In this document: positions 16,301 to 64,000 of the stretch, piece after piece
Layout: every line of letters starts with the position of its first letter
Position numbering within the stretch: the first letter of the stretch is position 1
Assembly: GCF_035084215.1 (NCBI RefSeq)
Contig: NC_090364.1
Span: 4,340,001 to 4,404,000 of the forward strand
Length of the DNA stretch: 64,000 bases
From: Heptranchias perlo
Taxonomy: Eukaryota
Direction: 5' to 3'
Position numbers and translations under genes: made by a program
Notes under the pieces: generated by a model
Database searches by the model: none
Seen by the model: the letters and a program-made list of their open reading frames with translations, nothing else
What the model was told of the DNA's origin: nothing

Positions 16301-17128
16301 AGTTGATTATGACAGTGACATTTTGGTTTAATTCGGTTTAATTGCTATGATTGGGTGTGCCACAAGAAAAAATTCTTACAGCACTTGAATAGGTTTTCGG
16401 GGTCCCTGACACTGGGGCTCAAAGACCCATTGGAAAAAAAGAGAAACTCAGTGTCTCCTTCTTGTTCAATTAAAAGAGTAACATTGAGACAATGGCACCG
16501 AGGGACTGGATAGCATGCTCGTAGTGGAAGGAATATTTTTTATTGAAGAGAGTGACTCAGGCTGACTGAAGCACAGGGACATGGACACACAGGCTGCAGA
16601 CTGCACAGTGTTACAAGGGGGCATGGGAATGGGTGGGATTCTGGGGAATGGGGGAGATGGGGAGAAAAGAACAGAACAAATGAGGAGCAGGGGGAGAAAT
16701 CCTTAGAAAGAGAGTTTAAAAAACAGACAGGTCACAGAATAAAAACAAACAGCAGGTTAAAATGAAGTGAAGAAACTTATGAAATAGAACAAGAGAAGAG
16801 ATTGAATGAAAAGAAGATCCTAAAGATATTGGTTTTTTTTTCCTTTCTGCTCAGCTCAGGAGTGTGGGATGGAAGAGCAGCCAGGTTTTTTTGTGTTTTT
16901 AGGCCCCCCCCACTTTTTTTAGGGGGCGGGGTTCGGGTTTTTTTCCATTCGTGTGATGAGAAAGCAGCTATTTGATTGGCCTGCCAAACATTCATCATCA
17001 GTGTTGTCACGTCCTGTAATTAAAGATGGGTTGTGTCTGAAAGAATAAATATAGCAGCTTAGGTTAGGAATCTTTATGTTCATATTATTTGCAGTCATTT
17101 GCTGGTCTATTAAAAAAAAGTAGTTAGG

Positions 17129-20100
17129 ATGGTTTCTCAAGTGTGTCAGAACTACCACAAGGAGTGTGAGGATGGTGTTAACCAGCAGATCAATATGGAG
17201 CTCTATTCCTCCTATGTTTATCTTTCTATGGTGAGTTTTGGGTTTCTTTGGGTATTTGGTCTTATTAACTAATGTAGACTTACTGAATTGTAGTGAATTA
17301 AACTTTTAAATTCAGTAAAATAATTTAATTTGCTGTTCTAATATTTCTTTTAACTATCTTTATAGTTGTGATGTTTCATTATCCTTTCAAATGGGTTGTT
17401 TGGGTCCTTTTTTTTTTAGTTTCCATGTTGGAGTTTAAATTGAGACTGTGAAATGCATTCCCCACCCCCCAAAAAAAAAAGCCTATTCAGTACATTGGCC
17501 AGTGAGTGTCTTTTGAGTTACAGGTGACTTGCCCATAGTTGGGGTCTCAAACACCTGTGGTGAAATCTTTAGTCAAAACACAAATCCATGGGCATTCTTA
17601 ACCATAGCTACATACTCTTGATCTTGTAACCTGTCTTTTCCAGCCAAAAGCTTAATTGAACTTCTCAAAGTTTCTAAAATCAAATTGGGAATTTTCAAAA
17701 TGGGTGGAGTTTCTTGCTTAATGAAGGGAGTTTTGTTCAGGTTTGGGATGGAGTGTAACCCTTGTCTGTACAATAGCAAGAAACTTGTAATTGATGGAAT
17801 GTATAGAACACAGTGGAGAAATGTGTGCCTCTTTTAATCAAGTAAGGCTGACATTGGGTTGCTCTCTGTTGTTATCAGGAAAGTGCCCAATTGCTACAAA
17901 ACTATGAACATAAAGCCTAATTTAAGCAAAAACAAAAGGAAATTTATATCTCTCTTCACTGGTGCCTACTGGTCATGGAAGGTCTCAAATGAGTGTACTT
18001 GTGGACACTGCATGCTCCCTCTCCTGGACCACAGGGGACTGGGCAAGACCATGAAAGAAGCAGGTAACCCCTCCTTTGGGATGTGCTCATCCTTGACATG
18101 TGAATAGAGGGTGGGGGTTTGTGGTGAGTTCAGATTATTGATTTGGAGAAGCTGTTTCAGATGTCAAATGTACATCTAAATTTTCCCCAATTTAGTGATC
18201 TGAACTAATTGAGTTTTATCCTATTTTACATTGTTTGTCTCTGTTACAACTTATTTTCTTGGAACTTCAAGTTCTGATCTAGTACACAGACCCTCTAAAA
18301 GGAGGAGACTCCCATTGCATGAGTTAATTGACTAATTGTGCACCCTGGTCTTTCTGAATCACTTGTGGTTGAACAGGTAGCTTTCGGCACCTTGGTCACA
18401 GTATCCAACACTGAAGGAGGACCTGTCATGTGACTTCCTGGTTAATGCTTTGTATAAATTGAGATGTGGGCAGGAGGTACCGGAATGGCCAAGTAGCTCA
18501 AGCTTGGGTTTAAGTTGAGTTGCTCAGTGTGGTCAAAGACTGAGGTGATTCCATTCTCCACTGGCAACCTGTTGTCTACTTTCACCAGGTGAACTGAGTT
18601 AGGAGATATGAGTACTCTTTAAAAATGATCAAACTCCTTGGTTCCCTGATCCATTGTGAAATCACTGTACTGATGTTTGTTCTCTATCTTAATTTGGTAT
18701 GATGGTTTAATTGACTCTTGTGCCTACAGTCCTATTACTTTGACCGGGATGATGTTGCCCTGTGTCACTTTGCTGAGTTCTTCAAGGAGCAGTCACATGA
18801 GGAACAGGAGCACGCTGAGAAACTGCTGAAATTCCAGAATCAGCGTGGGGGACGCATTGTCCTGGAGGACATCAAGGTTTGTTCATAGAATCATAGGCCA
18901 TTTGGCTCATCGTGTCTGTGCTGGCTCTTTGAAAGAATATCCAATTAGTCCCTCGTGCCCTGCTCTTTCCCCATAGAGCTGCAAATTTTTCCTTTTCCCA
19001 AATCTCTGTATAAAATTCTGTTCTGACAGCTGCTATTGATTCAGCTTCCCTTTCAGGCATTGCATTCCAGATTGTAACAATTCACTTTATATATGAAATC
19101 TCCATCTTCCCTCTGGTTCTTTTGCCCATTATCTTCAATCTGTGTCCTCTGGTTAATGACCCACCTGCCAGTTGTTGAGTTCATGACTGGACCAAATGTC
19201 ATTTATTGAGGCTTACTTTCATATTGAATGATTAGTCCCCAGTGCAGCCTCTATCCAGCTTTCAGAATGTGGAAAATTTCTCCACAGCAGAGAAGATGTT
19301 TTCTCATTAATGAGCCACATGTTCTGAATTATAACTGAACAGAGTACTTGTTGCTAACATCAGGGCAAAAATCAATTTTCTTCCACTCTCCAGTCATCCT
19401 CTTGTTTCAGGCTAGTTTGAGATTAATACTACATGGGATGCAGAAGGGAGCTTGAGCATTTTGTGACTTGAAAGACTTCCCTTTTCAGAAGCCAGAGCAG
19501 GATGAGTGGAGCAATGGTCTGGAGGCAATGCAGAGAGCTCTGCAGATGGAGAAGAATGTGAACCAGAGTCTGCTGGATCTCCACAAACTGTCCACTGAGA
19601 GGACCGACCCTCATGTAAGTTGTTAATGCATCACTGGCATTAACTTTTGGGGTTTATTTTTAATTTGGGATTGTGTAATTTAGCACTGTCCTTTAAAATC
19701 ACATCAGACTGAATGCAGCTCAATACTTTTCATTTCTAAATCTTGAGGTTTTTTAAATCTACTGAAGATGAGCATTAAAATCTGTCAAGGGTTGCGATAT
19801 CTTGGGCTTGAAGGAAACCTCCAAATGGATACTGACTAAGTGAGGGACTGGGGCAGGACAGCATTTATTTTCAACACCAGTGGCTGGGAGGGGGAGGAGT
19901 TAGATCTAGTCGTCTCTTTGCCATATTTTGTAATGAGACCTTGAGTATTTCCCAGGAGGGAAGTGAGATTAAAGGAACCTAATGATTCAAGTAGCTGGCT
20001 TGATTTTTATTTTTCCCTTTCCCAGTTGTGTGACTTCCTGGAGACCCACTACTTGGATGGACAAGTGAAGATGATCAAGAAGCTTGGAGATCACATCACC

Positions 20101-20178
20101 AACCTGAAGAGACTGGGAGCCCCTGAGACTGGCATGGGAGTGTACCTGTTTGACAAGCTCACCCTGGGGGAGGAGTGA
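17129..20178 (+). CDS. Ferritin H/M-type subunit G4 (divergent introns, EEQEH, E140G, C-terminus GEE), 175 aa
   Basis: Exons 17129-17230, 18730-18876, 19489-19614, 20026-20178. GT-AG introns; AATAAA at 20311. Confidence 0.92.
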
Positions 20179-22159
20179 CTGGACTGTTGTCCATGTTGCA
20201 GATATTCAACTTGTGTATTGAAGTTTTATGTTGCCATCTCTGAACTGGGAATGGAATTCCAAGTCTAAGATTAAGTTTCAAACATTGTAGTTGAGTGTTC
20301 TTGCTGCTGCAATAAAACTTTGATGTTGAACTGGTTCCTTGTTTCTTCTCGGTAACTGAGCACATTGTGTCAAATAAAAACTATTTCTACTAAGAAATAG
20401 ATTCTCACCTTGATAAAATCTGATTTGCTTGGGCACAGGGGTGTTTTAACCCCTTCCCCTCCAGAAGGGTTAATTGGGTTTTATAGCCGCCCTGGATGGC
20501 CATAGCAATATGTCTAATTTTGGCCTTTAACAGCTTTTAATGTTTGGTCTTCTGTAGAAGAGATTGAAGTGTAATCTGATTACAGTAAGACCTCTTTCTC
20601 CACACCTTCCCCATATGCTTAAATCCCTTTTGGAGAGTGTGCATTTTTTTTTACTATTTGTTAATGGGATGTGGGCATCAATGGTGATTACAGTAGTTAA
20701 CCTTCTGAATAAACAACCCCATGAATTGCTGCTGACTTGTCCATTGTAGGACATGAGGGAAGTGTTCCCTGGAGCAGGTATTCAAATTTAAGTAGTTACA
20801 AAAATCCTGGAGCAAAATAAGACCAAATCTCCAGTTGTTCCTGCTATGGTTATCTGGCTCTTTCCTCCATCTTTTTCTTCCTGTGCAGAACTTTGGTCCA
20901 GCTCCTGCTATTTGTTTCAATCTGTTTTTATTTTCCAGTCTCTGTTCACCTCACTCACCTCTTATATCCTGGACCCCATAGCCTCCAACATACTTCTATT
21001 TGCTGTTGCAAATCTAAGAGCCCCTCCAACTTTCCCTTGCTGGGTTCTGCTGTTTCGTTAAGTAATTCTTGCCCCATTCCCCTCTTGCGCATACAATCTT
21101 CGTGTAATCTTATTTGGCCTGGAATCTAATAACACTAGATCCCAATTGCTGAAACTGCCACTTATAAGTCTACTGAAGCGTTGGAGAATAGAGCCATCTA
21201 ATTATAAGATAAACCACCAACTACTTGGTCTATTTAAAACTTTAACTGAATTTGCACTAGTGATGTTCAGGTTATTCTCACACAGGGATCACAATCAGAT
21301 CAGCCATCGACCCCACTTTTCGTTGCTTCATCCTTCACTAGGTTCCACCTTTGATTTTTTTTTTTTTAGCCTGCTGTTTCTTGTTGATCCGACAGTATTC
21401 TGATGTGATCGGATCCGGAACACAAGATATCCATGGAGCCCCATCCTTCCCTGACCGGATTTAGGGAAATATCAGGAACTCTCATTTCGAAGAAGAAAAT
21501 TCACCACTTGCCTCTTTCCACTTGGTGTTTGACTGTCCAGGCAAAAAGTACAAGAGATTAATCATTGAAATAAGGAGTTACCAAACCCTGGAACTACTAG
21601 ATAGTCTGTTCACCACTGTGGGTCGCTGTCTGTACAACCAACACTACACACAGTGTTTGCCTCTCATCGCAATCCCTCCCAACACCAAACCCCCACCTCC
21701 CCCCCCCACCGCAATTCCTTCAGTCAATGGTCCACAGTCTCTTCCCCGTGCACTGCTCTGCATTTTATTGCTTGTAAAATTTAATGATGACAAAACAAGA
21801 ACTCAACATGCCGTGGTCCCCTTCACTTTCCAGCCGATGTGTGTACAGATGCTCACTGACCCTAGAATTGATGGAGTATCAAAGAACGTGTGTTTGACAC
21901 ATTCATCACACCCACTTTCCATTCGCCTGACTCGCTGTTGGTTGCTGTTCACAGGCTCTGATCTGTTTGGATGTTGCCTCAAACCCGCAGCTACCTGCCA
22001 AATAATCAACTCACGGACCCATCCAGAATTATTCAAAGACACTGACCCGCAAACAACAATTAAACCTGTGGTTCTGGATCTTTGAACCGTCACTATCAGT
22101 GACCATAACCGATGGGATGGGGCAGATCCACCAATTGACAATTTGGTCCATTATGGTCA

Positions 22160-22710
22160 AGTGCCCGGGTGGCCCTGGAGAGAGAGCATGTGGTGTCCAC
22201 CGTTACGCTTGATGCCTTCCGCGACCGGTGGGCACCGTAGGGTATAGACTGTCTTGTGGACATCAATAATAGAATCCTGATTTAATTGGGAAAGTATCCT
22301 GTTGTTTTTGGTGGCACTTGATGCTTATTTTGGCATCTTTTCAGTTTGATTGGACCATCCAATATTAGTGGTGCCCTGAGAGGGCCACTTGTGATGGTTT
22401 ATGTTTGGTGACCCTGGGGCAACCCAGAGTCTCCCTTATTGGTCCATCAAAGAAATGTCAATTATGGTCAATAATCTGGTCACTATCAGATTTTTTTTTC
22501 TTTGGAGTGTGGGATGGATGAGCAGCCATGTTTTTTTTTTCTTTTTCTTTTTTTGTGTTTTAGGCCCCCCTTTTATAAGAAGGGGAGGGGGGTTTGGTTG
22601 TGTTTATGTGCAGTAAATCAATAAACCCAAAATAAGTGTCATATTATAATGTTATTACATCGATCCAGGATGCACTCCAGTCCCTGCTGTGCCCACTGGT
22701 CACGGAAACA
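22160..22710. mobile_element. Tail-to-tail Tx1-like 3' fragments upstream of class-B promoters
   Basis: Plus-strand ARVALEREHVVSTVTLDAFRDRWAP at about 22162-22240, and a minus-strand FRD.WA.QGLECIL plus tail at 22540-22707. Repeated at about 27520, 38487, 49848 and 55208. Confidence 0.65.
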
Positions 22711-22759
22711 GATTTTACAGTTTGAGGAAAGTCAGAGCAATTGGATCTTTATTGAATTG

Positions 22760-22929
22760 TCAGCCAATGATGCTCCTCCTTCAAAGTTCTGACTGGCTCT
22801 GGATGTCATCTCCCCTCCTCCCTTTTCTTGATTGCTGTTCTGAGAGAGGATGTAATTTCTGATTGGGTATTGCCAACTGTCACTCATCATCTAGGCTGCC
22901 ACGCCCCGGATTAACCAGCAGTATAAATA
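22760..22929 (+). promoter_or_regulatory. G5 class-B proximal promoter (CCAAT, GC-box-like CCACGCCCC, TATA)
   Basis: TATAAATA at 22922-22929. Equivalent TATA boxes at 28247 (G6), 39258 (G8) and 55978 (G11); mutated at 50605 (G10). Confidence 0.65.
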
Positions 22930-23003
22930 TGGAGCTTTGGGTAGCTGTTTTTCACCTTGTTGTTTCAACAGAGTTATTTAGACTTGTTAAAGTTAATTTA
23001 AAG

Positions 23004-25278
<2,275 letters not shown>

Positions 25279-28200
25279 CTGGACTGCAGTCTACATTGCA
25301 GAAGCATTATATTGTCATCAATCTGAACTAGGAATTAGATTCCGAGTCTAACATTAACTTAGAAACATTCTAGCTGAAATAAAAACTTTTTGGTGTTGAA
25401 TTGATTACTTTTTTTTTCTTCAGTTAAGTAACTGAGCACATTTCAGATCAATGATGGTGTCCTTGCATCAAACAAGAATGACTTCTGATAAGAAATAGAT
25501 TGGTCTTGATGAAACATGATTTGCTTGGGCATATGGTTGTTTTAACCCTTTCATCTCCAGAATACTGAAGTTGGCTCAGTGGCAGCCTGGGATAGTCTTA
25601 GCTGCAAGTCTAATTAGCCTTTTAACTGGTTCTACGATTTGGTGCACAGTAGAAAATAAACTTGCTTATAATCTGGTTAAAGTAAAACCTTACCTCTCAT
25701 AATTGATTATCTTTTCCAAGAATGTGCTGTTACAGTACTGGCTGCTTGTTGTGAAAAGGTAATCTGCCACATTACTGCTGTTAACTGTTCTATTCTAACT
25801 GCCAGGATCTGAGGGGTGACTAAGGCCAATGGTTCAACAGGGTACATTTTAGTCTTGCTCCCCTTTTGGAAAAATTTAAATGGAAGTTCTTAAATCTAAA
25901 TTTCATTATTCACACTAACAGACAGTCAATTTGTGGATCTGCAACCTTCCCATCAGTATTGTACAACTAAAACCTGCCATTAAAATTCCAAATACCAGGG
26001 GGTAGTGGGAGCTGAGGTTTTTTTCACAATAGGTGTGGAATTTTATCCTGCACCATCTCCCTCTCTGTGGTCTTCAAAGGTGCCTTGTTTCAAGCTGTTG
26101 TAGGGGTACAGTAGTCCAGTACTTGTTACTAGACGAGTAATCCACGCAATTAATTCAAATTTTTGAAATTAGAAAGCTGGTATAAAGTGACTATGAAGCT
26201 GTTGGATTATTAAAATTCCACCCCGTTCACTAATCTTTTAGGGGAAAGGAAACCTGCCATCCTTACCCAGTCCAGCATCGAGGTGAATCCATTCACAGAC
26301 GAATGTAGTTGTCTCTTCGCTGCTCTCAGAAGTGGCTCAGTAAGCCAGTTGGTTAGATCGAACCCACTATGAGCACCTTCACAAAGGTTGCAGTGCAAGG
26401 TACTCCTGCCCATCACCTTAGCAGGAGCCGGAGCTCCATCCTTCCCTGACCGGATTTAGAGAAACGTCAGTAATTCTGATCTCGGAATCATTTCCAATGG
26501 ATAAGTTTCACCATTCTCCCCGTCTCTTTCCATTTGTACTTTTTGCCTGGACAGTGAAACAGCAAGAGAGATTAATCATTGAGACAGGGGGTTACCAAAC
26601 ACAGAAAATATCAGATAGTCTGTTCACAACTGTGGGTCAATATCTACACAATCAGCGTTACACAGTGTTTGCCTCTCACTGCAATCCCCCCACCCAATCC
26701 ATTCAGCTTGACTCAAACATCCTGCCCTTTAACCTCTGGCGGATAGACCAGACTTATCACAGCACTTGTAAACTACGTTGAATATACTCGACTTTTCAGG
26801 GGTGAGGCAAAGGGAAACGAAGGGATCTGGATAGGTGGGGAAGGTGGGCTGCTGAGTGGATAATAGCATTTAATGTGGGAAAATTCAAGGGAATGAGACT
26901 GAGGAATATGGACTGTCCTGTCCACAGTGGGAATATAATCTAAATGGCTTGAGGACACAAGCCACCAACAGGGGAGATGAGTCTGGGGATACTGGAGGAA
27001 GATAACGTGGGGAATGTACAGATGACTGAGATAAATATTTGCTAGAGTGGCTGACTGAGAGCTTTCAGTTTTAGGGATCAGTCAATGGTCCACAGTCTCT
27101 TCCCCGTGCACTGCTCTGCAATTTATTGTTTGTAAAATTTCATGATGACAAAACAAGAACTCAACATGCCGTGGTCCCCTTCACTTTCCAGCCGATGTGT
27201 GTACAGATGCTCACTGACCCTAGAATTGATGGAGTATCGAAGGACTTGTGTTTGACACATTCATCACACCCACTTTCCATTCGCCTGACTCGCTGTTGGT
27301 TGCTGTTCACAGGCTCTGATCTGTTTGGATGTTGCCTCAAACCCGCAGCTACCTGCCAAATAACCAACTCACGGACCCATCCAGAATTATTCAAAGACAC
27401 TGACCCGCAAACAACAATTAAACCTGTGGTTCTGGATCTTTGAACCGTCACTATCAGTGACCATAACCGATGGGATGGGGCAGATCCACCAATTGACAAT
27501 TTGGTCCATTATGGTCAAGTGCCCGGGTGGCCCCGGAGAGGGAGCATGTGGTGTCCACCGTTACGCTTGATGCCTTCCGCGACCGGTGGGCACCGCAGGG
27601 TATAGACTGTCTTGTGGACATCAATAATAGAATCCTGATTTAATTGGGAAAGTATCCTGTTGTTTTTCGTGGCACTTGATGCTTATTTTGGCATCTTTTC
27701 AGTTTGATTGGACCATCCAATATTAGTGGTGCCCTGAGAGGGCCACTTGTGATGGTTTATGTTTGGTGACCCTGGGGCAACCCAGAACCTCCCTTATTGG
27801 TCCATCAAAGAAAGGTCGATTATGGTCAATAATATGGTCACTATCAGATTTTTTTTTCTTTGGAGTGTGGGATAGAAGAGCAGACATGTTTTTTTAACTT
27901 TTTTTTTCCTTTCTTTTTTTGTGTTTTAGGCCCCCCCTTTTATAAGAAGGGGAGGGGGGTTGGGTGTGTTTATGTGCAGTAAATCAATAAACCCAAAATA
28001 AGTGTCATTTTATAATTTTATTACATCGATCCAGGATGCACTCCAGTCCCTGCGGTGCCCACCGGTCACGGAAACAGATTTTCCAGTTTGAGGAAAGTCA
28101 GAGCAATTGGATCTTTATTGGCTCTGGGTGTCATCTCCCCTCCTCCCTTTTCTTGATTGGTGTTCTGAGAGAGGATGTAATTTCTGATTGGGTATTGCCA

Positions 28201-28328
28201 ACTGTCACTCATCATCTAGGCTGCCACGCCCCGGATTAACCAGCAGTATAAATATGGAGCTTTGGGTGGCTGTTTTTCAGTTTCTTGTTTCAACAGAGTT
28301 GTTTAGTTTTGTTAAAGTTAATTTAAAG

Positions 28329-30949
<2,621 letters not shown>

Positions 30950-32719
30950 ACTGACTGCAGGGATAAAGCTGATTGTTTAGTTCTCCTGTTTATATAGTCA
31001 AGAACCCCTATCCTGTAGCAATGGTGACTTTGTACAAAGAGCTGTGAGACCTAGACTCTTGATGTGAAAAGTAATAGTAACTGGAAATAAACTGTTACAG
31101 AAGACTGGGTTTTGGCTCCTTGTAAATTGAGTGATTGCTTATTTTTCAGATTAACATAATTCAGTTGTTATAACAAATTGCATTGGGCTGTGTATTGGCT
31201 TTATGGTGAGATTCTGCCCTGTGAATTTTTTTTCTTCTGGGGTGTGTGGGGCCACTGTGTCTACCTTGAGTGTAAATTGTATTTATGCAGCTCAATGATT
31301 ACTGCTGATTTCAATGCAAAGAACAATACAGTAACACAAGTTCCTGTTCCTACTGGTACTGCATATTATCAGCTGTTTAACTCATCACTGGTGCAAAATC
31401 AGCTGCTGTAACATTTTGTTACAACACAAGGAAAGTAAACTAGTAATTTCAGTCCAAGGGGCAATCTTATTTTAAGAATAGTATCTGCCAGTGGAAAAGC
31501 AGTCTTGATGCTTTTCTTTTCAAAGGAAGAGGCTACTGACCTCAGGGGTTAGCTGGGGTAGCTTATGAAATCACTCATTACTGCTCCTAAAAGACTGTTA
31601 GTTTGTCATCAAAGGGGTCTCTGATGGGGCAGTGTAGATTCCCGGTCGGGAGGGGATAGGATTGACTGACAACTTCTTCGTCTATTTCCCTTTATTGTCT
31701 TCACCACCCCCACTTCTAACCCCCTATTAAGCTCCCACATGAATAATACATTGGGTAAAGTACTGGAATACCTCAAACTAAACTCCAGCAAAAAATGTTT
31801 TCCTCCTGGAAGATGTAATAAATGCACAAAACAAATAACTTTAAACATTGTTAAATAGGTAAGGCTCTTAACCTCTTCCATACTGCTATTGTTCCATCAA
31901 TTCATAAACCAATACAATCAGCTCCTCTATGAATTTGTATTGATCCCATTGTGCAGTTAATACAAATTACAATTTGACTGGATCACCGTTTCATTGAAAC
32001 AAAGTTAAATAGATATTTTGCCTGAAACTCCACGTCCCTGTTCCATCAATTAATAAACACAATACAATCAGCTCCTCCATAAATGTATCAATTTGCCTGT
32101 AGTTCTATTGTGTTCCATACCAAATTGTAATCATCTTTTCCAAATCCTATTTGTTCTCCCTTTGTCTCTTTCACACCTATGAATGGATCAAATGTTGATG
32201 CTGTAATTACCCAGTGTTTACAAGTGAAGTTTAGGAGCTGTGTGATTGAATTGCAGTCTTCAGTCATTCCACGTTAATATCTTTACATGGAGTAAATAAG
32301 GGGAAACTGTTTCCAGTGGCAGACCAGTTAGTAACCAGCAAACACAGATTTAAGGTGATTGGTAAAAGAACCAGAAGTGACAAGAAACTTTATTTTCCCA
32401 GTGTTCTGATCTGGAATGCATTGCCTCATCGGGTGGTGGAAGCAGATTTAATAATTTTCAAAAGGAAATTTGATTATTACTTGAAGGGGGAAAGAGCAGG
32501 GGAGTGGGACTAATTGGATAGCTCTTTCAAAGAGCCAGTATAGGCACGATGGGCTGAATGGCCTCCTTTTGTGCTGTAATACTAGGATACTATGATCTCT
32601 AAAGGCACTTTTGGGGTATCAATGTCACCACATTTCATACGTTGTTGAGCCACAATTTTACGAGTCAGTGTGGATTATCTGATAGCTGTGACTGCTGCAT
32701 CGGTCGAACCTTTGAGGTG

Positions 32720-33085
32720 TAGTCACTGTTGTAATGTAAGAAATGCAGCAGTCAATTTGCCTCCAGCAAGGACCCAAAAACAGCAATGAAATATTGACCT
32801 GATAATCTGTTTTAGTGATGTTAGTTGAGGGATAAATATTGGTCCAGACATTGGGGAGAACTCCCCTGCTCTTCCTTGAAATAGTGCTGTGGGATCTTTT
32901 ACATCCACATGAGAGGGCAGATGAGGCCTCGATTTAATATCACATCCAAAAGACGGCACCTCTGACAGTGCAGCACTCCCTTAGTCAGTCTAGACTTTGT
33001 GCTCAAGTCTATGGATTGGGACTTGAACCCACAACCTTCTGACTCTGAGGTGAGAGTGCTGCCACTGAGCCACAGCTGACACAAA
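32720..33085 (-). mobile_element. SacSINE1/DeuSINE-like SINE upstream of G7
   Basis: Reverse complement of the SINE at 3897, inserted at the same position relative to the conserved block. Confidence 0.75.
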
Positions 33086-33389
33086 TGGAGATGTTTGTGT
33101 GGGTGACATTGAATTCAGTAATCTTCACTCCCTCTCATTCTCGCTGAATATCCTGAATTTTACCAAACAACATTTCATGAGAATCAAAACTAAAAATGAC
33201 ACATCCCACAATGCTTTGCCCAGTTGATGCCCCCATGCTGCCAATCCTCAGACACACCCATTCTCTATATTAGAACTGGGGACGATTCACACCATCCATG
33301 GGATGGAATTTCCATTTCTCTGTCCAATGGTTGGTTTGCAAATTCACTCAAGACTACTTGATTCCTCTGAATATTGTCTCAGCGTCACA
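33081..33389 (+). promoter_or_regulatory. Highly conserved upstream block of class-A genes (candidate enhancer)
   Basis: Near-identical copies at 3590-3898 and 12012-12321 (inverted), 44094-44402 and 60798-61106. Contains TGGAATTTCC, TTGCAAAT and TCCCACAATGC. Confidence 0.5.
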
Positions 33390-33539
33390 ATTACTTACAA
33401 GTAATAAACTTGACCAGATTATGAAAAGCCACTTCGGTGAAAATATCAAATTATGATCAAATAATTCAAAGTTGTCATTCCGAGAGATTGAAACAAAGAG
33501 AAACTTTCAAATTTGAGGGAAGTCAAAGACCCCAAAAGC

Positions 33540-33720
33540 AGTGACATCACCGAGACTGATTATCCAAATCGGCCTTTATTCCAAACCTCTGATTGGCTCT
33601 GGGTATCAACCCCTCCCCACACTGCCTCTCTGTTAATTGGTTAAATGGACGATTCCTGATTGGCGATCATTGGTGCTGTCATTGCTGACCAAAATGCAGG
33701 CCGTCCCAGTAGTATAAATA
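33540..33720 (+). promoter_or_regulatory. G7 class-A proximal promoter
   Basis: TGACATCA at about 33542, inverted CCAAT (ATTGG) motifs, TATAAATA at 33713-33720. Equivalents at 44742 (G9) and 61447 (G12). Confidence 0.65.
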
Positions 33721-33799
33721 CAAAGAGCTTGTGAGTGAAGAGGTTAGTTCTAGAACTTTTTGAGCAATAGTTGAAAGTGTTAATATTGAAATAGTGACA

Positions 33800-36145
<2,346 letters not shown>

Positions 36146-39100
36146 CTGGACTGTTGTCCATGTTGCAGATATTCAACTTGTGTATTGAAGTGTTATGTTG
36201 TCATCTCTCTGAACTGGGAATGGAATTCCAAGTCTAAGATTAACTTCCAAACATTGTAGTTGAGTATTCTTGCAGCTGAAATAAAACATTTTGATGTTGA
36301 ACTGGTTCCTTTTTTTTCTTCTCAGTAACTGAGCACATTGTAACACCAATGCATATGGCCTTGTGTCAAATAACCTATTTTCTTACCAGAAACTTTTTTT
36401 TGTCACCTTAATAAAATCTGATTTGTTTGGGCGCATGGGTGTTTTAACCCCTTCCCCTCCAACAGGCTTAATTGGGTTTTGTAGCAGTCTCGGATGGCCA
36501 TAGCGACAAGTCAAATTTTGGCCTTCAACAGCTTTTATTATTTATCCTTCTGTAGAAGAGACTGGAGTGTAATCTGATTACAGTAAGACCTCTTGCTCCA
36601 CACCTTCCCTGTATGCTTGAATCCCTTTTGGTGTGTGTTTTTTTTATTTGTTTGTTAGATGTGGGTGTTGCTGGTGATTACAGTAGTCAACCTTCTGAAT
36701 AAACAACCCCACTAATTACGGCTGACCCTTCCATTGTAGCACATGAGGAAAGTGTTCCCTGTAGCATGTATTCAAATTTAAGTATTTACAATAATCCTAG
36801 AGCAAAATAAGAAATCTCCAGTTTTTCCTTCTATGGTGACCTGGCTCTATCTTCCATTTTCAGCTCATACTATTTTGTTTCAATCTCCTTTCCCAGCCTC
36901 TCTCTGCTCACTTCACCCACCTCTTACAGCCTGGACCCCACAGCCTCCAAAATACTTCCATTTGCTACTGCAAATCTGGGCCCTCCTCTAGGTCTCCCTT
37001 GCTGAATTCTGCTGTTTTATTAAACAGTTCTTGCCCCATTCCCCTCTTGCTCCTTGTGTGTACGGTCTTCATGTAATCCTATTTGGCTTAGAACCAAATG
37101 ACACTAGATCCCAATTGCTAAAGCTGCCACTTAGAAATCTATTAGAGAACAGAGTCAGCTAATTATAGGATAAACCACCAACTACTTGGTCTGTTTAAAG
37201 CTTTATCTGAATTTGCACTAGTGATGTTCAGGTTATTCTCACACAGGGACCACAATCAGATCAGTCCATCAACCCCACTTTTCGTTGCTTCATCTTTCCT
37301 TCACGAGGTTCCACCTTTGACATGTTTTTTTTTTAGCCTGTTTCTTGTTGATCCGACCGTATTCTGATGTGATGTGATCTGGAACACGCTATCCACTGAG
37401 CCCCATCCTTCCCTGACCGCATTTAGGGAAATATCAGTAACTCCCCTTTCTAATGAGAAAATTCACCACTCGACTCTTTCCACTTGGTGTTTGACTGTCC
37501 AAAAAGTACAAGAGATTAATCATTGAAACAAGGGGTTACCAAACCCAGGAAATACCAGATAGTCTGTTCACCACTGTGGGCCACTGTCCAAACAACCAAC
37601 GCTACCCACAGTGTTTGCTTCTAACTGCAATCCCTCCCAACACCAAATCCCCACCAACCCCCCAATCCCTTGCACTTCACTCAGACATTCTGCCCTTTGA
37701 CCTCTGGCGGATAGACCAGACTTATAACAGCTCTTGTAAATTACATGGAATGTATTAGGCCATTCAGGGGTGAGGCAAAGGAAATACGAAGGGATCTGGA
37801 TAGGTGGGGAAGGTGGGCAGCTGAGTGGAAAATAACATTTAATGTGGGAAGATTCAAGGGACTTAGACTGGGGAATATGGACTGTCCTGTCCGCAGTGGG
37901 AATATAATCTAAATGGCTCGAGGCCACGAGCCACCAACAGGGGAGATGAGTCTGGGGATACTGGAGGAAGATAACGTGGGGAATGTACAGATGACTGAGA
38001 TAAATATTTGACAGTGGCTGACTTGGAGCTTTCAGTTTTAGGGATCAGTCAATGATCCACAGTCTCTTCCCCGTGCACTGCTCTGCAATTTATTGTTTGT
38101 AAAATTTCATGATGACAAAACAAGAACTCAACATGCCGTGGTCCCCTTCACTTTCCAGCCGATGTGTGTACAGATGCTCACTGACCCTAGAATTGATGGA
38201 GTATCGAAGAACTTGTGTTTGACACATTCATCACACCCACTTTCCATTCGCCTGACTCGCTGTTGGTTGCTGTTCACAGGCTCTGATCTGTTTGGATGTT
38301 GTCTCAAACCCGCAGCTACCTGCCAAATAATCAACTCACGGACCCATCCAGAATTATTCAAAGACACTGACCCGCAAACAACAATTAAACCTGTGGTTCT
38401 GGATCTTTGAACCGTCACTATCAGTGACCATAACCGATGGGATGGGGGCAGATCCACTAATTGACAATTTGGTCCATTATGGTCAAGTGCCCGGGTGGCC
38501 CTGGAGAGGGAGCATGTGGTGTCCACCGTTACGCTTGATGCCTTCCGCGACCGGTGGGCACCGCAGGGTATAGACTGTCTTGTGGACATCAATAATAGAA
38601 TCCTGATTTAATTGGGAAGGTATCCTGTTGTTTTTGGTGGCACTTGATGCTTATTTTGGCATCTTTTCAGTTTGATTGGACCATCCAATATTCGTGGTGC
38701 CCTGAGAGGGCCACTTGTGATGGTTTATGTTTGGTGACCCTGGGGCAACCCAGAGTCTCCCTTATTGGTCCATCAAAGAAAGGTCGATTATGGTCAATAA
38801 TATGGTCACTATCAGATTTTTTTTTCTTTGGAGTGTGGGATAGAAGAGCAGACATGTTTTTTTAACTTTTTTTTTCCTTTCTTTTTTTGTGTTTTAGGCC
38901 CCCCCTTTTATAAGAAGGGGAGGGGGGGTTTGGTTGTGTTTATGTGCAGTAAATCAATAAACCCAAAATAAGTGTCATTTGATAATTTTATTACATCGAT
39001 CCAGGATGCACTCCAGTCCCTGCGGTGCCCACCGGTCACGGAAACAGATTTTCCAGTTTGAGGAAAGTCAGAGCAATTGGATCTTTATTGAATTGTCAGC

Positions 39101-39339
39101 CAATGATGTTCCTCCTTCAAAGTTCTGACTGGCTCTGGGTGTCATCTCCCCTCCTCCCTTTTCTCGATTGGTGTTCTGAGAGAGGATGTAATTTCTGATT
39201 GGGTATTGCCAACTGTCACTCATCATCTAGGCTGCCACGCCCCGGATTAACCAGCAGTATAAATATGGAGCTTTGGGTGGCTATTTTTCAGTTTCTTGTT
39301 TCAACAGAGTTGTTTAGTTTTGTTAAAGTTAATTTAAAG

Positions 39340-41962
<2,623 letters not shown>

Positions 41963-44818: not shown

Positions 44819-47569
<2,751 letters not shown>

Positions 47570-50500
47570 CTGGACTGTTGTCCATGTTGCAGATATTCAA
47601 CTTGTGTATTGGAGTATTATGTTGTCATCTCTCTGAACTTGGAAAGGAATTCCAAGTCTAAGATTAACTTCCAAACATTGTAGTTGAGTGTTCTTGCAGC
47701 TGAAATAAAACATTTTGATGTTGAACTGGTTCCTTTTTTCTTCAGTAACTGAGCACATTGTAACACCAATGCATATGGCCGTGTCAAATACAAAGTTTCT
47801 GGTAAGAAAATAGGTTGTCACCTTGATAAAATCTGATTTACTTGGGCACATGTTTTAACCCCTTCCCCTCCACCAAGCTTAATTGGGTTTTGTAACAGCC
47901 TCGGATGGCCATAGCGACAAGTCAAATTTTGGCCTTTAACAGCTTTTAATGTTTAGTCTTCTGTAGAAGAGATTGGAGTGTAATCTGATTACAGTAAGAC
48001 CTCTTCCTCCACACCTTCCCCATATGCTGGAGTCCCTTTGGGTGTGTGTTTTTTTAAAATATTTTTTCATTAGATGTGGGTGTTGCTGGCAATTACAGTA
48101 GTCAACCTTCTGAATCAACGACTCCACTAATTACAGCTGACTCTTCCATTGTAGCACATGAGGAAAATGTTCCCTGTAGCAGGTATTCAAATTTAAGTAT
48201 TTACAATAATCCTAGAGCAAAATAAGAAATCTCCAGTTTTTCCTTCTGTGGTTACCTGGCTCTTTCCTCCATTTTGTTTCAATCTCATTTTCCAGCCTCT
48301 CTCTGCTCACTTCACCCACCTCATACAGCCTGGCCCCTACAGCCTCCAAAATACTTCCATTTGCTACTGCAAATCTAGGCCCTCCTCTAGGTCTCCCTTG
48401 CTGAATTCTGCTGTTTCATTAAACAGTTCTTGCCCCATTCCCCTCTCGCTCCTTGTGTGTACGGTCTTCATGTAATCCTATTTGGCTTAGAACCAAATGA
48501 CACTAGATCCCAATTGCTAAAGCTGCCACTTAGAAATCTATTAGAGAACAGAGCCAGCTAATTATAGGATAAACCAGCAACTACTTGGTCTGTTTAAAGC
48601 TTTATCTGAATTTGCACTCGTGATGTTCAGGTTATTCTCACACAGGGACCACAATCAGATCAGTCCATCAACCCCTTCCTTCATTAGGTTCCACCTTTGA
48701 TATGTTTTTTGTTGATCCGACAGTATTCTGATGTGATCTGGAACACAAGATAACCACGGAGCCCCATCCTTTCCCTGACTACATTTGGGGAAATATCAGT
48801 AACTCCCCTTTCTAATGAGAAAATTCACCACTCGACTCTTTCCACTTGGTGTTTGACTGTCCAAAAAGTACAAGAGATTAATCATTGAAACAAGGGGTTA
48901 CCAAACCCAGGAAATACCAGATAGTCTGTTCACCACTGTGGGCCACTGTCCATACAACCAACGCTACCCACAGTGTTTGCCTCTCATCGCAATCCCTCCC
49001 AACACCAAACCCCCATCCCCCACAATCCCTTCAACTTCACTCAGACATCCTGCCCTTTGACCTCTGGCGGATAGACCAGACTTATAACAGCTCTTGTAAA
49101 TTACATGGAATGTATTAGGCCATTCAGGGGTGAGGCAAAGGAAATACGAAGGGATCTGGATAGGTGGGGAAGGTGGGCTGCTGAGTGGAAAATAACATTT
49201 AATGTGGGAAGATTCAAGGGACTGAGACTGGGGAATATGGACTGTCCTGTCCGCTGTGGGAATATAATCTAAATGGCTTGAGGCCACAAACCACCAACAG
49301 GGGAGATGAGTCTGGGGATACTGGAGGAAGATAACGTGGGGAATGTACAGATGACTGAGATAAATATTTGCTGGAGTGGCTGACTGAGAGTTTTCAGTTT
49401 TAGGGATCAGTCAATGGTCCACAGTCTCTTCCCCGTGCACTGCTCTGCAATTTATTGTTTGTAAAATTTCATGATGACAAAACAAGAACTCAACATGCCG
49501 TGGTCCCCTTCACTTTCCAGCCGATGTGTGTACAGATGCTCACTGACCCTAGAATTGATGGAGTATCGAAGGACTTGTGTTTGACACATTCATCACACCC
49601 ACTTTCCATTCGCCTGACTCGCTGTTGATTGCTGTTCACAGGCTCTGATCTGTTTGGATGTTGTCTCAAACCCGCAGCTACCTGCCAAATAACCAACTCA
49701 CGGACCCATCCAGAATTATTCAAAGACACTGACCCGCAAACAACAATTAAACCTGTGGTTCTGGATCTTTGAACCGTCACTATCAGTGACCATAACCGAT
49801 GGGATGGGGCAGATCCACCAATTGACAATTTGGTCCATTATGGTCAAGTGCCCGGGTGGCCCTGGAGAGGGAGCATGTGGTGTCCACCGTTACGCTTGAT
49901 GCCTTCCGCGACCGGTGGGCACCGCAGGGTATAGACTGTCTTGTCATCAATAATAGAACCCTGATTTAATTGGGAAAGTATCCTGTTGTTTTTGGTGGCA
50001 CTTGATGCTTATTTTGGCATCTTTTCAGTTTGATTGGACCATCCAATATTAGTGGTGCCCTGAGAGGGCCACTTGTGATGGTTTATGTTTGGTGACCCTG
50101 GGGCAACCCAGAACCTCCCTTATTGGTCCATCAAAGAAAGGTCGATTATGGTCAAGAATACGGTCACTATCAGATTTTTTTTTCTTTGGAGTGTGGGATG
50201 GAAGAGCAGCCATGGTTTTTTTTCTTTTCCTTTTTATGTGTTTTAGGCCCCCCTTTTATAAGAAGGGGAGGGGGGTTTGGTTGTGTTTATGTGCAGTAAA
50301 TCAATAAACCCAAAATAAGTGTCATATTATAATGTTATTACATCGATCCAGGATGCACTCCAGTCCCTGCGGTGCCCACCGGTCACGGAAACAGATTTTC
50401 CAGTTTGAGGAAAGTCAGAGCAATTGGATCTTTATTGAATTGTCAGCCAATGATGTTCCTCCTTCAAAGTTCTGACTGGCTCTGGGTGTCATCTCCCCTC

Positions 50501-50686
50501 CTCCCTTTTCTTGATTGCTGTTCTGAGAGAGGATGTAATTTCTGATTGGGTATTGCCAACTGTCACTCATCATCTAGGCTGCCACGCCCCGGATTAACCA
50601 GCAGAATAAATATGGAGCTTTGGGTGGTTGTTTTTCAGCTTGTTGTTTCAACAGAGTTATTTAGACTTGTTAAAGTTAATTTAAAG

Positions 50687-52963
<2,277 letters not shown>

Positions 52964-55900
52964 CTGGACTGCAGTCTACATTGCAGAAGCATTATATTGT
53001 CATCAATCTGAACTAGGAATTAGATTCCGAGTCTAACATTAACTTAGAAACATTCTAGCTGAAATAAAAACTTTTTGGTGTTGAATTGATTACTTTTTTT
53101 TTTCTTCAGTTAAGTAACTGAGCACATTTCAGATCAATGATGGTGTCCTTGCATCAAACAAGAATGACTTCTGCTAAGAAATAGATTGGTCTTGATGAAA
53201 CATGATTTGCTTGGGCATATGGTTGTTTTAACCCTTTCATCTCCAGAATACTGAAGTTGGCTCAGTGGCAGCCTGGGATAGTCTTAGCTGCAAGTCTAAT
53301 TAGCCTTTTAACTGGTTCTACGATTTGGTGCACAGTAGAAAATAAACTTGCTTATAATCTGGTTAAAGTAAAACCTTACCTCTCATAATTGATTATCTTT
53401 TCCAAGAATGTGCTGTTACAGTACTGGCTGCTTGTTGTGAAAAGGTAATCTGCCACATTACTGCTGTTAACTGTTCTAATCTAACTGCCAGGATCTGAGG
53501 GGTGACTAAGGCCAATGGTTCAACAGGGTACATTTTAGTCTTGCTCCCCTTTTGGAAAAATTTAAATGGAAGTTCTTAAATCTAAATTTCATTATTCACA
53601 CTAACAGACAGTCAATTTGTGGATCTGCAACCTTCCCATCAGTATTGTACAACTAAAACCTGCCATTAAAATTCCAAATACCAGGGGGTAGTGGGAGCTG
53701 AGGTTTTTTTTTTCACAATAGGTGTGGAATTTTATCCTGCACCATCTCCCTCTCTGTGGTCTTCAAAGGTGCCTTGTTTCAAGCTGTTGTAGGGGTACAG
53801 TAGTCCAGTACTTGTTACTAGACGAGTAATCCACGCAATTAATTCAAATTTTTGAAATTAGAAAGCTGGTATAAAGTGACTATGAAGCTGTTGGATTATT
53901 AAAATTCCACCCCGTTCACTAATCTTTTAGGGGAAAGGAAACCTGCCATCCTTACCCAGTCCAGCATCGAGGTGAATCCATTCACAGACGAATGTAGTTG
54001 TCTCTTCGCTGCTCTCAGAAGTGGCTCAGTAAGCCAGTTGGTTAGATCGAACCCACTATGAGCACCTTCACAAAGGTTGCAGTGCAAGGTACTCCTGCCC
54101 ATCACCTTAGCAGGAGCCGGAGCTCCATCCTTCCCTGACCGGATTTAGAGAAACGTCAGTAATTCTGATCTCGGAATCATTTCCAATGGATAAGTTTCAC
54201 CATTCTCCCCGTCTCTTTCCATTTGTACTTTTTGCCTGGACAGTGAAACAGCAAGAGAAATTAATCATTGAGACAGGGGGTTACCAAACACAGAAAATAT
54301 CAGATAGTCTGTTCACAACTGTGGGTCAATATCTACACAATCAGCGTTACACAGTGTTTGCCTCTCACTGCAATCCCCCCACCCAATCCATTCAGCTTGA
54401 CTCAAACATCCTGCCCTTTAACCTCTGGCGGATAGACCAGACTTATCACAGCACTTGTAAACTACGTTGAATATACTCGACTTTTCAGGGGTGAGGCAAA
54501 GGGAAACGAAGGGATCTGGATAGGTGGGGAAGGTGGGCTGCTGAGTGGATAATAGCATTTAATGTGGGAAAATTCAAGGGAATGAGACTGAGGAATATGG
54601 ACTGTCCTGTCCACAGTGGGAATATAATCTAAATGGCTTGAGGACACAAGCCACCAACAGGGGAGATGAGTCTGGGGATACTGGAGGAAGATAACGTGGG
54701 GAATGTACAGATGACTGAGATAAATATTTGGCAGAGTGGCTGACTGAGAGTTTTCAGTTTTAGGGATCAGTCAATGGTCCACAGTCTCTTCCCCGTGCAC
54801 TGCTCTGCAATTTATTGTTTGTAAAATTTCATGATGACAAAACAAGAACTCAACATGCCGTGGTCCCCTTCACTTTCCAGCCGATGTGTGTACAGATGCT
54901 CACTGACCCTAGAATTGATGGAGTATCGAAGGACTTGTGTTTGACACATTCATCACACCCACTTTCCATTCGCCTGACTCGCTGTTGGTTGCTGTTCACA
55001 GGCTCTGATCTGTTTGGATGTTGTCTCAAACCCGCAGCTACCTGCCAAATAATCAACTCACTGACCCATCCAGAATTATTCAAAGACACTGACCCGCAAA
55101 CAACAATTAAACCTGTGGTTCTGGATCTTTGAACCGTCACTATCAGTGACCATAACCGATGGGATGGGGCAGATCCACTAATTGACAATTTGGTCCATTA
55201 TGGTCAAGTGCCCGGGTGGCCCTGGAGAGGGAGCATGTGGTGTCCACCGTTACGCTTGATGCCTTCCGCGACCGCTGGGCACCGCAGGGTATAGACTGTC
55301 TTGTGGACATCAAAAATAGAATCCTGATTTAATTGGGAAAGTATCCTGTTGTTTTTGGTGGTACTTGATGCTTATTTTGGCATCTTTTCAGTTTGATTGG
55401 ACCATCCAATATTAGTGGTGCCCTGAGAGGGCCACTTGTGATGGTTTATGTTTGGTGACCCTGGGGCAACCCAGAGCCTCCCTTATTGGTCCATCAAAGA
55501 AAGGTCGATTATGGTCAATAATATGGTCACTATCAGATTTTTTTTTCTTTGGAGTGTGGGATGGAAGAGCAGACATGTTTTTTTAACTTTTTTTTTCCTT
55601 TCCTTTTTTTGTGTTTTAGGCCCCCCCTTTTATAAGAAGGGGAGGGGGGTTGGGTGTGTTTATGTGCAGTAAATCAATAAACCCAAAATAAGTGTCATTT
55701 TATAATTTTATTACATCGATCCAGGATGCACTCCAGTCCCTGCGGTGCCCACCGGTCACGGAAACAGATTTTCCAGTTTGAGGAAAGTCAGAGCAATTGG
55801 ATCTTTATTGAATTGTCAGCCAATGATGTTCCTCCTTCAAAGTTCTGACTGGCTCTGGGTGTCATCTCCCCTCCTCCCTTTTCTCGATTGGTGTTCTGAG

Positions 55901-56059
55901 AGAGGATGTAATTTCTGATTGGGTATTGCCAACTGTCACTCATCATCTAGGCTGCCACGCCCCGGATTAACCAGCAGTATAAATATAGAGCTTTGGGTGG
56001 CTGTTTTTCAGTTTCTTGTTTCAACAGAGTTGTTTAGTTTTGTTAAAGTTAATTTAAAG

Positions 56060-58671
<2,612 letters not shown>

Positions 58672-60439: not shown

Positions 60440-60800
60440 TCACTGTTGTAATGTAAGAAATGCAGCAGTCAATTTGCCTCCAGCAAGGACCCAAAAACAG
60501 CAATGAAATATTGACCTGATAATCTGTTTTAGTGATGTTAGTTGAGGGATAAATATTGGTCCAGATATTGGGGAGAACTCCCCTGCTCTTCCTCGAAATA
60601 GTGCTGTGGGATCTTTCAAGTCCATCTGAGAGAGCAGATGAGGCCTCGATTTAGTATCACACACAAAAGACGGCACCTCTGACAGTACAGCACTCCCACA
60701 GTCAGCCTAGACTTTGTGCTCAAGTCTATGGATTGGGACTTGAACCCACAACCTTCTGACTCTGAGGTGAGAGTGCTGCCACTGAGCCACAGCTGACACA
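60440..60800 (-). mobile_element. SacSINE1/DeuSINE-like SINE upstream of G12
   Basis: Paralogous copy of 32720-33085. Confidence 0.75.
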
Positions 60801-61533
60801 AATGGAGATGTTTGTGTGGGTGACATTGCATTCAGTAATCTTCACTCCCTCTCATTCTCGCTGAATATCCTGAATTTTACCAAACAACATTTCATGAGAA
60901 TCAAAACTAAAAATGACACATCCCACAATGCTTTGCCCAGTTGATGCCCCCATGCTGCCAATCCTCAGACACACCCATTCTCTATATTAGAACTGGGGAC
61001 GATTCACACCATCCATGGGATGGAATTTCCATTTCTCTGTCCAATGGTTGGTTTGCAAATTCACTCAAGACTACTTGATTCCTCTGAATATTGTCTCAGC
61101 GTCACAATTACTTACAAGTAATAAACTTGACCAGATTATGAAAAGCCACTTCGGTGAAAATATCAAATTATGATCAAATAATTCAAAGTTGTCATTCCGA
61201 GAGATTGAAACAAAGAGAAACTTTCAAATTTGACGGAATTCAAAGACCCCAAAAGCAGTGACATCACCGAGACTGATTATCCAAATCGGCCTGTATTCCA
61301 AACCTCTGATTGGCTCTGGGTATCAATCCCTCCCCACACTGCCTCTCTGTTAATTGGTTAAATGGACGATTCCTGATTGGCTATCGGGGATTGTCAATCA
61401 TCATTGGTGCTGTCATTGCTTACCAAAATGCAGGCTGTCCCAGTAGTATAAATACAAAGAGCTTGTGAGTGAAGAGGTTAGTTCTAGAACTTTTTGAGCA
61501 ATAGTTGAAAGTGTTAATATTGAAATAGTGACA

Positions 61534-63878
<2,345 letters not shown>

Positions 63879-64000
63879 CTGGACTGTTGTCCATGTTGCA
63901 GATATTCAACTTGTGTATTGAAGTGTTATGTTGTCATCTCTCTGAACTGGGAATGGAATTCCAAGTCTAAGATTAACTTCCAAACATTGTAGTTGAGTGT

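Follow-up and report, generated by a model that had tools for sequence, protein, structure and literature searches.

When iron is low, binding of IRP to a cap-proximal iron-responsive element (IRE) blocks ferritin translation (PMC11719527). In salmon, IREs are present in every H and M mRNA, and intron-containing vertebrate ferritin genes are presumed to be IRE bearing, with the element used to tell true genes from pseudogenes (PMC4117605). The features required of an IRE, as listed by Volz, are a C14-G18 pair, AGU at positions 15 to 17, a pyrimidine at position 19, a bulged C8, and a five-pair helix; in the same source, C8>U deregulates human FTL and deletion of N19 abolishes function (PMC8466369). 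In the SIREs scheme, CAGAGH is classical motif 2 (PMC2896125), and in SIREs 3.0 the combination of U8 with CAGAGN constitutes motif 21, U8 being allowed only by motifs 20 to 22 (PMC12230718).

Both IRE-less ferritins and shark ferritin arrays are already known. FTHL17 is intronless and is not known to carry an IRE. Its germ-line, multicopy, ferritin-like genes are mammalian and X-linked, unlike those described here, and share with them a substitution: E62K, which abolishes ferroxidase activity in FTHL17, matches the E58K of the present array (PMC7760355). FTMT, a vertebrate ferritin outside IRE/IRP control, arose as a retrocopy without introns; it has a mitochondrial presequence but neither a TATA nor a CCAAT box (PMC7760355). 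The genes studied here, by contrast, contain three introns and have both TATA and CCAAT boxes, and their products lack a presequence. The likeness to FTMT proposed in a preliminary description of this locus is therefore weak. The yolk ferritin of snails (Biomphalaria and Lymnaea) is the better analogue, because a shark ferritin cluster has already been reported with ovary-specific expression; it has a 5' UTR without an IRE and serves egg provisioning, but a single gene encodes it, and the secreted protein has both a signal peptide of 18 aa and an insert of 42 aa (PMC10799875). The proteins of the present array have 175 to 176 aa and neither signal peptide nor insert.

Tandem expansion of ferritin genes in fish is exemplified by the 14 fthl27 copies of a hadal snailfish, which differ in being recent, expressed in most tissues, and read as a defense against ROS; the term "IRE" does not occur in the article text (PMC10746142). 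Sahm et al. (bioRxiv 10.1101/2024.09.09.611499) report ferritin clusters in the white shark and the Greenland shark, the largest Greenland shark cluster showing ovary-specific expression; they describe the shark array as ancient and name its copies FTH1 and FTL. The word "iron" does not occur in their main text, which thus holds nothing on IRE status. The literature searched, which was mainly open access and was assessed by record listings and the openings of abstracts, yielded no report of IRE loss in shark ferritin arrays ("ferritin" does not occur in a second Greenland shark preprint or in the Squalomix preprint).

Ferritin array in Heptranchias perlo

We identified 12 tandem ferritin genes in the window (i.e., the whole 64-kb stretch of Heptranchias perlo DNA analyzed), each with four exons and three GT-AG introns, using the exons of G6 as queries. 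G1 to G3 lie on the minus strand and G4 to G12 on the plus strand.

560..2673, minus strand: G1, ferritin gene; class-A UTR, without IRE
6821..10833, minus strand: G2, ferritin gene; class-A UTR, without IRE; E58K
13470..15319, minus strand: G3, ferritin pseudogene; frameshifts, with 2 nt lacking from exon 2 and again from exon 3, and a stop at codon 7; without IRE
17129..20182, plus strand: G4, ferritin gene; UTR class of its own with a 15-codon upstream ORF; without IRE
23004 to about 25280, plus strand: G5, ferritin gene; relic variant at 22957..22975; E58K and H61D
28329..30949, plus strand: G6, ferritin gene; exons 28329-28430, 29758-29904, 30320-30445, and 30794-30949
33800..36149, plus strand: G7, ferritin gene; class-A UTR, without IRE; E58K
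39340-41962, plus strand: G8, ferritin gene; relic at 39293..39311
44819..47573, plus strand: G9, ferritin gene; class-A UTR, without IRE
50687 to about 52965, plus strand: G10, ferritin gene; relic variant at 50640..50658; E58K and H61D
56060-58671, plus strand: G11, ferritin gene; relic at 56013..56031
61534..63882, plus strand: G12, ferritin gene; class-A UTR, without IRE; E58K

Eleven of the 12 genes are intact, with predicted proteins of 175 to 176 aa, and the mean pN/pS over their 55 pairs is 0.23; these 11 genes are under purifying selection. The proteins align from residue 1 with a 176-aa M ferritin, without presequence or insert, and reading from the predicted transcription start site (TSS) revealed no N-terminal extension.

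We take the ferroxidase ligands, in bullfrog M numbering, to be E23, Y30, E57, E58, H61, E103, and Q137. The full set is present in 6 of the 11 intact genes, including G6 (176 aa, all ligands kept). In the other five (G2, G5, G7, G10, and G12), as well as in pseudogene G3, residue 58, which corresponds to E62 of human H, is K, and G5 and G10 additionally have H61D. By analogy with FTHL17, the E58K subunits, including those with H61D, are likely to be ferroxidase dead and L-like. Of the 25 Heptranchias array proteins compared, 5 have K58; none of the 82 from other sharks does, these being samples of larger clusters and not a census. The exons concerned are as follows.

9828-9974: exon 2 of G2, with E58K
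24075-24221: exon 2 of G5, with E58K
34644-34790: exon 2 of G7, with E58K
51759-51905: exon 2 of G10, with E58K
62377-62523: exon 2 of G12, with E58K

Position 140 (bullfrog M numbering), a site near the ferroxidase center, is Met in all 11 intact genes and nearly all array proteins; the single-copy M-type protein and fth1a have Ala or Ser there. A 14.5-kb block containing G5, G6, and G7 (21720-36265) is repeated 27.7 kb away as G10, G11, and G12 (49407-63998) with 98.5 to 98.8% identity, representing either a recent duplication or an uncollapsed haplotype.

Relationship to other ferritins

The database proteins closest to exon 2 are ferritins of Heptranchias perlo itself (86 to 92% in the best single-domain matches). 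In protein trees built with named references only, the window proteins and other Heptranchias proteins fell inside a clade of shark array ferritins (support, 100/99; 100/100 once four ray proteins were added), which also includes a Carcharodon protein and is separate from both fth1a and the conserved single-copy M-type gene. The window genes are thus members of an elasmobranch ferritin cluster. Like the clusters of Sahm et al., they form a tandem array of a kind common to distant sharks, and they share a clade with a white shark protein, which suggests orthology with that cluster; in contrast to the FTH1/FTL naming, the present trees place them in a separate clade outside fth1a.

The parent of the cluster was addressed with an AU test, in which neither grouping with M (p 0.38) nor grouping with H (p 0.30) was rejected; in free trees, the cluster falls outside the H clade. 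The single-copy M-type gene and array proteins are on contigs of identical length, apparently the same contig, in five species (Scyliorhinus canicula, S. torazame, Heterodontus, Chiloscyllium plagiosum, and Pristis), with fth1a on other contigs where listed. Read as linkage, this apparent sharing of contigs hints at an M-type origin of the cluster. P0094, P0061, and P0263, which are ferritins of vertebrate type but come from short contigs recorded under bacterial names, are most likely contaminants.

A probable IRE relic upstream of five genes

The 19-mer TTCTTGTTTCAACAGAGTT occurs at 28282-28300 (G6), 39293-39311 (G8), and 56013-56031 (G11), and its one-base variant TTGTTGTTTCAACAGAGTT occurs at 22957-22975 (G5) and 50640-50658 (G10). 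The preliminary description had placed identical copies at 28282, 39293, and 56013, as confirmed here, and related copies at 22961 and 50644, both of which lie inside the variants. It had compared them with a 5' half of the ferritin IRE that agrees with published sequences: the final 18 nt of that half open a 28-nt ferritin IRE probe used for EMSA, the source of our 18-mer and whole-probe comparisons (PMC4642350). Volz Table S1 has the same 18-mer in its FTL entries for human, mouse, and rat, and by eye the relic resembles the FTL entries of that table more closely than the FTH1 entries (PMC8466369). The match to this 5' half is 16/18 nt in G6, G8, and G11 and 15/18 nt in G5 and G10.

28282..28300, plus strand: G6 relic, 5' lower and upper stem plus loop; C8>U at 28288, U17>A at 28297, C14 at 28294
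28301..28328, plus strand: remainder of the G6 UTR and place of the IRE 3' arm; T rich, with one fitting G, in register with N19 deleted
21720-23170, 27078-28430, 49407-50853, and 54767-56224: shared promoter/UTR blocks, 97 to 99%

The earlier claim that the 3' arm is gone holds, since only 1 of the 10 G6 bases past the 18-mer matches without gaps. With N19 deleted, TTG fits and is followed by one match in eight. This pattern looks like a single deletion or replacement beginning just after the loop.

The promoters of the five relic-bearing genes are 97 to 99% identical over about 1 kb, but their first introns are only 69 to 76% alike between G5/G10 and G6/G8/G11, suggesting promoter exchange; conversion or unequal crossing-over are conceivable routes. 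With a common promoter recently copied to five genes, the five relics represent one event. At 12893, a further site has a 13-nt core in common with the relic, but it lacks a TATA box, gene context, and any flanking alignment and was set aside as a chance match.

Promoter and predicted transcript start

The relic is on the sense strand between the TATA box and the ATG, near the predicted TSS. Three features of G6 define this setting.

28097..28246, plus strand: proximal promoter with four inverted CCAAT (ATTGG) boxes; 0 of 2,000 shuffles reach four
28247..28254, plus strand: TATA box
28277-28282, plus strand: initiator-like TCAGTT, predicted start near 28279

With the TATA box at 28247 and TCAGTT at 28277, the start is predicted at about 28279, which would put C14 of the relic about 16 nt from the cap. 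This is close to a fitting position for an IRE, the zebrafish fth1 RefSeq row of Volz Table S1 having position 19 (PMC8466369). All 12 genes keep a TATA-like box 70 to 88 nt upstream of the ATG. The 150 nt above each TATA box contain, over the 12 promoters, 32 ATTGG and no CCAAT, and the ATTGG counts of 9 of the 12 promoters, which are related copies, exceed shuffles (reached in at most 32 of 2,000). A TATA box combined with inverted CCAAT boxes is typical of oocyte promoters. CPE-like motifs were found in the 3' UTRs of only 2 of the 12 genes, leaving oocyte-type polyadenylation control unsupported.

Statistical assessment of the resemblance

Over both strands of the window, the 18-mer was matched with two or fewer mismatches at three sites (0.01 expected) and with three or fewer at five (0.10 expected). 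Because the five copies are not independent, the fair test is one made per UTR. In dinucleotide shuffles of the gene's own UTR, the ungapped score was reached in 2 of 20,000 for G6 (16/18) and in 5 of 20,000 for G5 (15/18). Gapped local alignment with the whole 28-nt probe, which eliminates the choice of IRE half, gave scores reached by 2 to 9 of 5,000 shuffles for G6, G8, and G11, by 31 to 64 of 5,000 for G5 and G10, and by 570 to 4,922 of 5,000 for the remaining seven. With the four UTR classes taken into account, this test gives a P of only about 0.002 to 0.007, and G5 and G10 by themselves are weaker. Since the match exceeds UTR shuffles, the preliminary reading of a fossil IRE is probably right, and we consider it very likely, on this sequence evidence, that the G6-class sequence is a true, decayed ferritin IRE relic.

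When the 67-nt G6 UTR was searched against Rfam, IRE_I (RF00037) was the sole plus-strand family among 4,227 (28278-28301; 11.2 bits; E, 5.1). The alignment uses the 5' arm and puts AACAG on the 3' arm instead of in the loop, and no such match was obtained with 201-nt and 64-kb queries or with the G5 and G7 UTRs; given this misplacement and the loss of the match with longer queries and G5, its support is weak.

A similar relic in the class-A genes (G1, G2, G7, G9, and G12), suggested by eye, was rejected: neither the 18-mer nor the whole probe gave scores above those of shuffles. The 12/18 match of G1, which adjoins the ATG, was reached by 31 of 4,000 shuffles and, with the whole probe, by 570 to 1,003 of 5,000. 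When the G6 UTR and exon 1 were translated in frame and used as a query, no model from another species clearly covered the relic; the two long alignments (P0001 and P0018) were low-complexity hydrophobic matches.

Predicted structure of the relic

The C14-G18 cross-loop pair is kept in G6 (C at 28294 and G at 28298), with a predicted pairing probability of only 0.03. Positions 15 to 17 of the loop read AGA, which departs from the Volz definition and agrees with SIREs loop motifs 2 and 21; position 8 is U, not the bulged C, in all five copies. U follows the loop at position 19, but the sole register with any pairing deletes N19. The upper helix has one of five pairs in register and at best three of six with a 3' bulge, short of the five pairs and the n7-n25 pair, and the preliminary conclusion that the stem cannot form stands. 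The pairing probability in the IRE register is at most 0.03 in G6, whose UTR folds no better than shuffles (z, +1.0). A 3-bp CAA/UUG stem, available with N19 deleted, has a probability of 0.03 in G6 and 0 in G5. The Rfam score on the 67-nt G6 UTR (11.2 bits) lies below the gathering cutoff of 34 bits. No inverted repeat was found around the relic, and alternative hairpins in the G6 and G5 UTRs were no more stable than those of shuffles.

All five relics match motif 21, yet they fail for want of a stem under a SIREs-type rule that we re-implemented from the published core rule. The substitutions at the bulged C and in the loop noted earlier (U8 and A17) are real, but a CAGAG loop is not disqualifying under SIREs; as CAGAG with U8 is an accepted motif there, the missing stem is the decisive loss. 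The relic resembles the ferritin 5' IRE (RF00037; FTL/M type) in 16 of the 18 nt compared in the 5' half, in C14-G18, and in its predicted cap-proximal place in a ferritin 5' UTR and differs from it in C8>U, U17>A, the lack of an upper or lower helix and of the 3' arm, and its bit score. By its predicted folding, it fails the structural definition and would be unable to work as an IRE; it is not a member of the IRE family and is likely the remnant of one.

Absence of IREs from the predicted UTRs

UTR extents were predicted from the TATA boxes. The 12 UTRs form four classes that are not detectably homologous to one another. As the preliminary description had proposed, they were scanned with Rfam and the SIREs-type rule, and none of the 12 predicted 5' UTRs contains an IRE. 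Rfam gave no hits at the gathering score in the 64 kb and no IRE at E values up to 10, and none of the 12 TATA-to-ATG regions passes the SIREs-type rule. The same rule passes at three plus-strand sites (4255, 23965, and 51649) and eight minus-strand sites of the window, all outside the predicted UTRs. The CAGTGA hairpins at 23965 and 51649, which pass with one mismatch and one wobble, are unlikely to matter because they lie in intron 1 of G5 and G10. With Rfam at zero and the three plus-strand passes outside the UTRs, the window also offers no source for an upstream exon carrying a canonical IRE, the possibility that would have told against the earlier account. That account had further held the class-A, G3, and G4 UTRs to have no CAGTGN hairpin; none passes the rule, although G1 does have a CAGTGA, stemless, at ATG-8.

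Since the UTR classes cannot be aligned, "loss" in the other seven genes is argued from the ancestral vertebrate state and not from the relic. Gene models extended too far upstream provide a further view: a translated IRE trace was seen in 15 of 23 N-terminally over-extended H-chain models of bony vertebrates, which served as a control. Of 151 named elasmobranch array proteins, 9 had over-extended models, and none of these showed such a trace; 2 of the 9 share an extension, and some possibly have spurious exons. Three of the nine visibly follow the G4 or class-A upstream sequence of the window. These comparisons tentatively suggest that IRE loss may be cluster-wide. In P0017, a Pristiophorus model, the N-terminal extension spans the TATA box and has AST, which is one frame of the IRE 5' half; its spacing differs from that in G6, and the case is ambiguous.

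Origin and meaning of the relic

The reading we prefer, with a probability of about 0.7 for the whole, is that loss of the IRE in these genes freed their ferritin output, most likely ovarian, from the iron-sensing block. The cluster would derive, probably, from the linked single-copy M-type gene, whose ancestral mRNA would have borne a cap-proximal IRE. In the class comprising G5, G6, G8, G10, and G11, deletion or replacement of the 3' arm immediately past the loop, together with substitutions at C8 and U17, may have left a 5' half that is recognizable but presumably unfoldable, with nothing detectable apparently kept in the other three UTR classes. IRP1 and IRP2 would be unable to bind the stemless relic productively, so that the mRNAs would escape the iron-sensing translation block; without an IRE, translation would proceed whatever the state of IRP, that is, independently of IRP and iron, and output would follow transcription, driven by the TATA box and several inverted CCAAT boxes, and gene dose. 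Iron could possibly act on transcription of the array. The purpose would most likely be the loading of oocytes or ovary with ferritin; in zebrafish follicles, ferritin mRNA is abundant (PMC1488847). As to why the element might have been lost, ferritin made in mass would lower labile iron and activate IRP, shutting off IRE-bearing messages, and many such messages would also titrate IRP.

A purely neutral history, in which the IRE decayed after duplication where IRP control was irrelevant, without selection or special purpose, is compatible with the sequence part of this account and differs only in cause. The divergence of the UTRs is in its favor (88% between G5 and G6, with 95% in the CDS and 97 to 99% in the promoter, and classes that cannot be aligned), as is the one pseudogene among 12 genes; we regard it as less likely than not. 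No intact IRE is found in the 12 genes or the 9 extended models from other species, and the sharp 5'/3' asymmetry favors one disabling event over even decay, but both observations are compatible with neutrality. Chance resemblance in a T-rich UTR, which would leave genes without an IRE and an 18-mer of other derivation, is improbable. A single event copied five times, the 1/10 match of the 3' arm, an Rfam score of 11.2 bits that is lost with longer queries, and the unrelated 12/18 match of G1 (31/4,000 shuffles), by which moderate matches are seen to occur, all speak for it, but the composition-matched shuffles (2/20,000 and 2 to 9/5,000), the sense-strand position in a ferritin UTR at the expected cap distance, and the continuation of the match upstream into the 5' arm of the Rfam consensus speak against it.

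Two further alternatives are less probable still. The relic region, as a pyrimidine tract plus CAG, could be a 3' splice site to which an upstream noncoding exon, possibly with an IRE, is joined: AG 28295-28296 scores 5.4 bits in a matrix from the window's own acceptors, which puts it at the 96.6th percentile of the 4,055 AGs on the plus strand, the weakest real acceptor scoring 2.7. Set against a leave-one-out median of 13.4 bits for real acceptors, a TATA-like box in 12/12 genes while this AG is not kept, and the lack of a canonical IRE in 64 kb, where genes lie a few kilobases apart on both strands, this is very improbable. The least credible alternative is a noncanonical but working IRP site exerting weak iron control. 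Position 8 and the loop fit motif 21 exactly in 5 of 12 genes, C14-G18 is intact, and the CAA/UUG stem is possible in G6 with N19 deleted, but SIREs still demands a 5-bp helix, which fails here, the 3-bp stem has the low probabilities given above, and C8, U17, N19, and the helix are all required according to Volz (PMC8466369).

Under the preferred reading of IRE loss, an old, intact, intron-bearing ferritin family without an IRE would be a clear exception among vertebrates, with the relic documenting the route of loss; the surprise is limited, as FTMT, the IRE-less snail yolk ferritin, and the array itself were known. It would also offer a testable reason for the abundance of ferritin genes in elasmobranchs, namely, egg provisioning rather than somatic iron defense. 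In its absence of IREs and its likely egg role, the array probably works like molluscan yolk ferritin. A bolder extension, which we hold only tentatively and at less than even odds, is that a vertebrate counterpart of yolk ferritin (i.e., an IRE-free cytosolic array for oocyte stockpiling) arose before the shark/ray split, that the loss permitted amplification, and that an H/L-like split between ferroxidase-active and ferroxidase-dead E58K subunits was reinvented in the window/Heptranchias lineage.

Upstream reading frames

An ATG in the TATA flank of G6, in frame with its start, opens a stretch of 25 mostly hydrophobic codons (28254-28328); by eye, G5, G8, and G10 keep this frame open and G11 has lost it. 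The frame is probably incidental, because it begins upstream of the predicted TSS and T-rich DNA yields hydrophobic codons. In the G4 UTR (17076-17123), an out-of-frame ORF of 15 codons starts at an upstream ATG, at position -53, and could dampen G4 translation. A peptide like that of this ORF forms the in-frame N terminus of the Heptranchias models P0208 and P0214.
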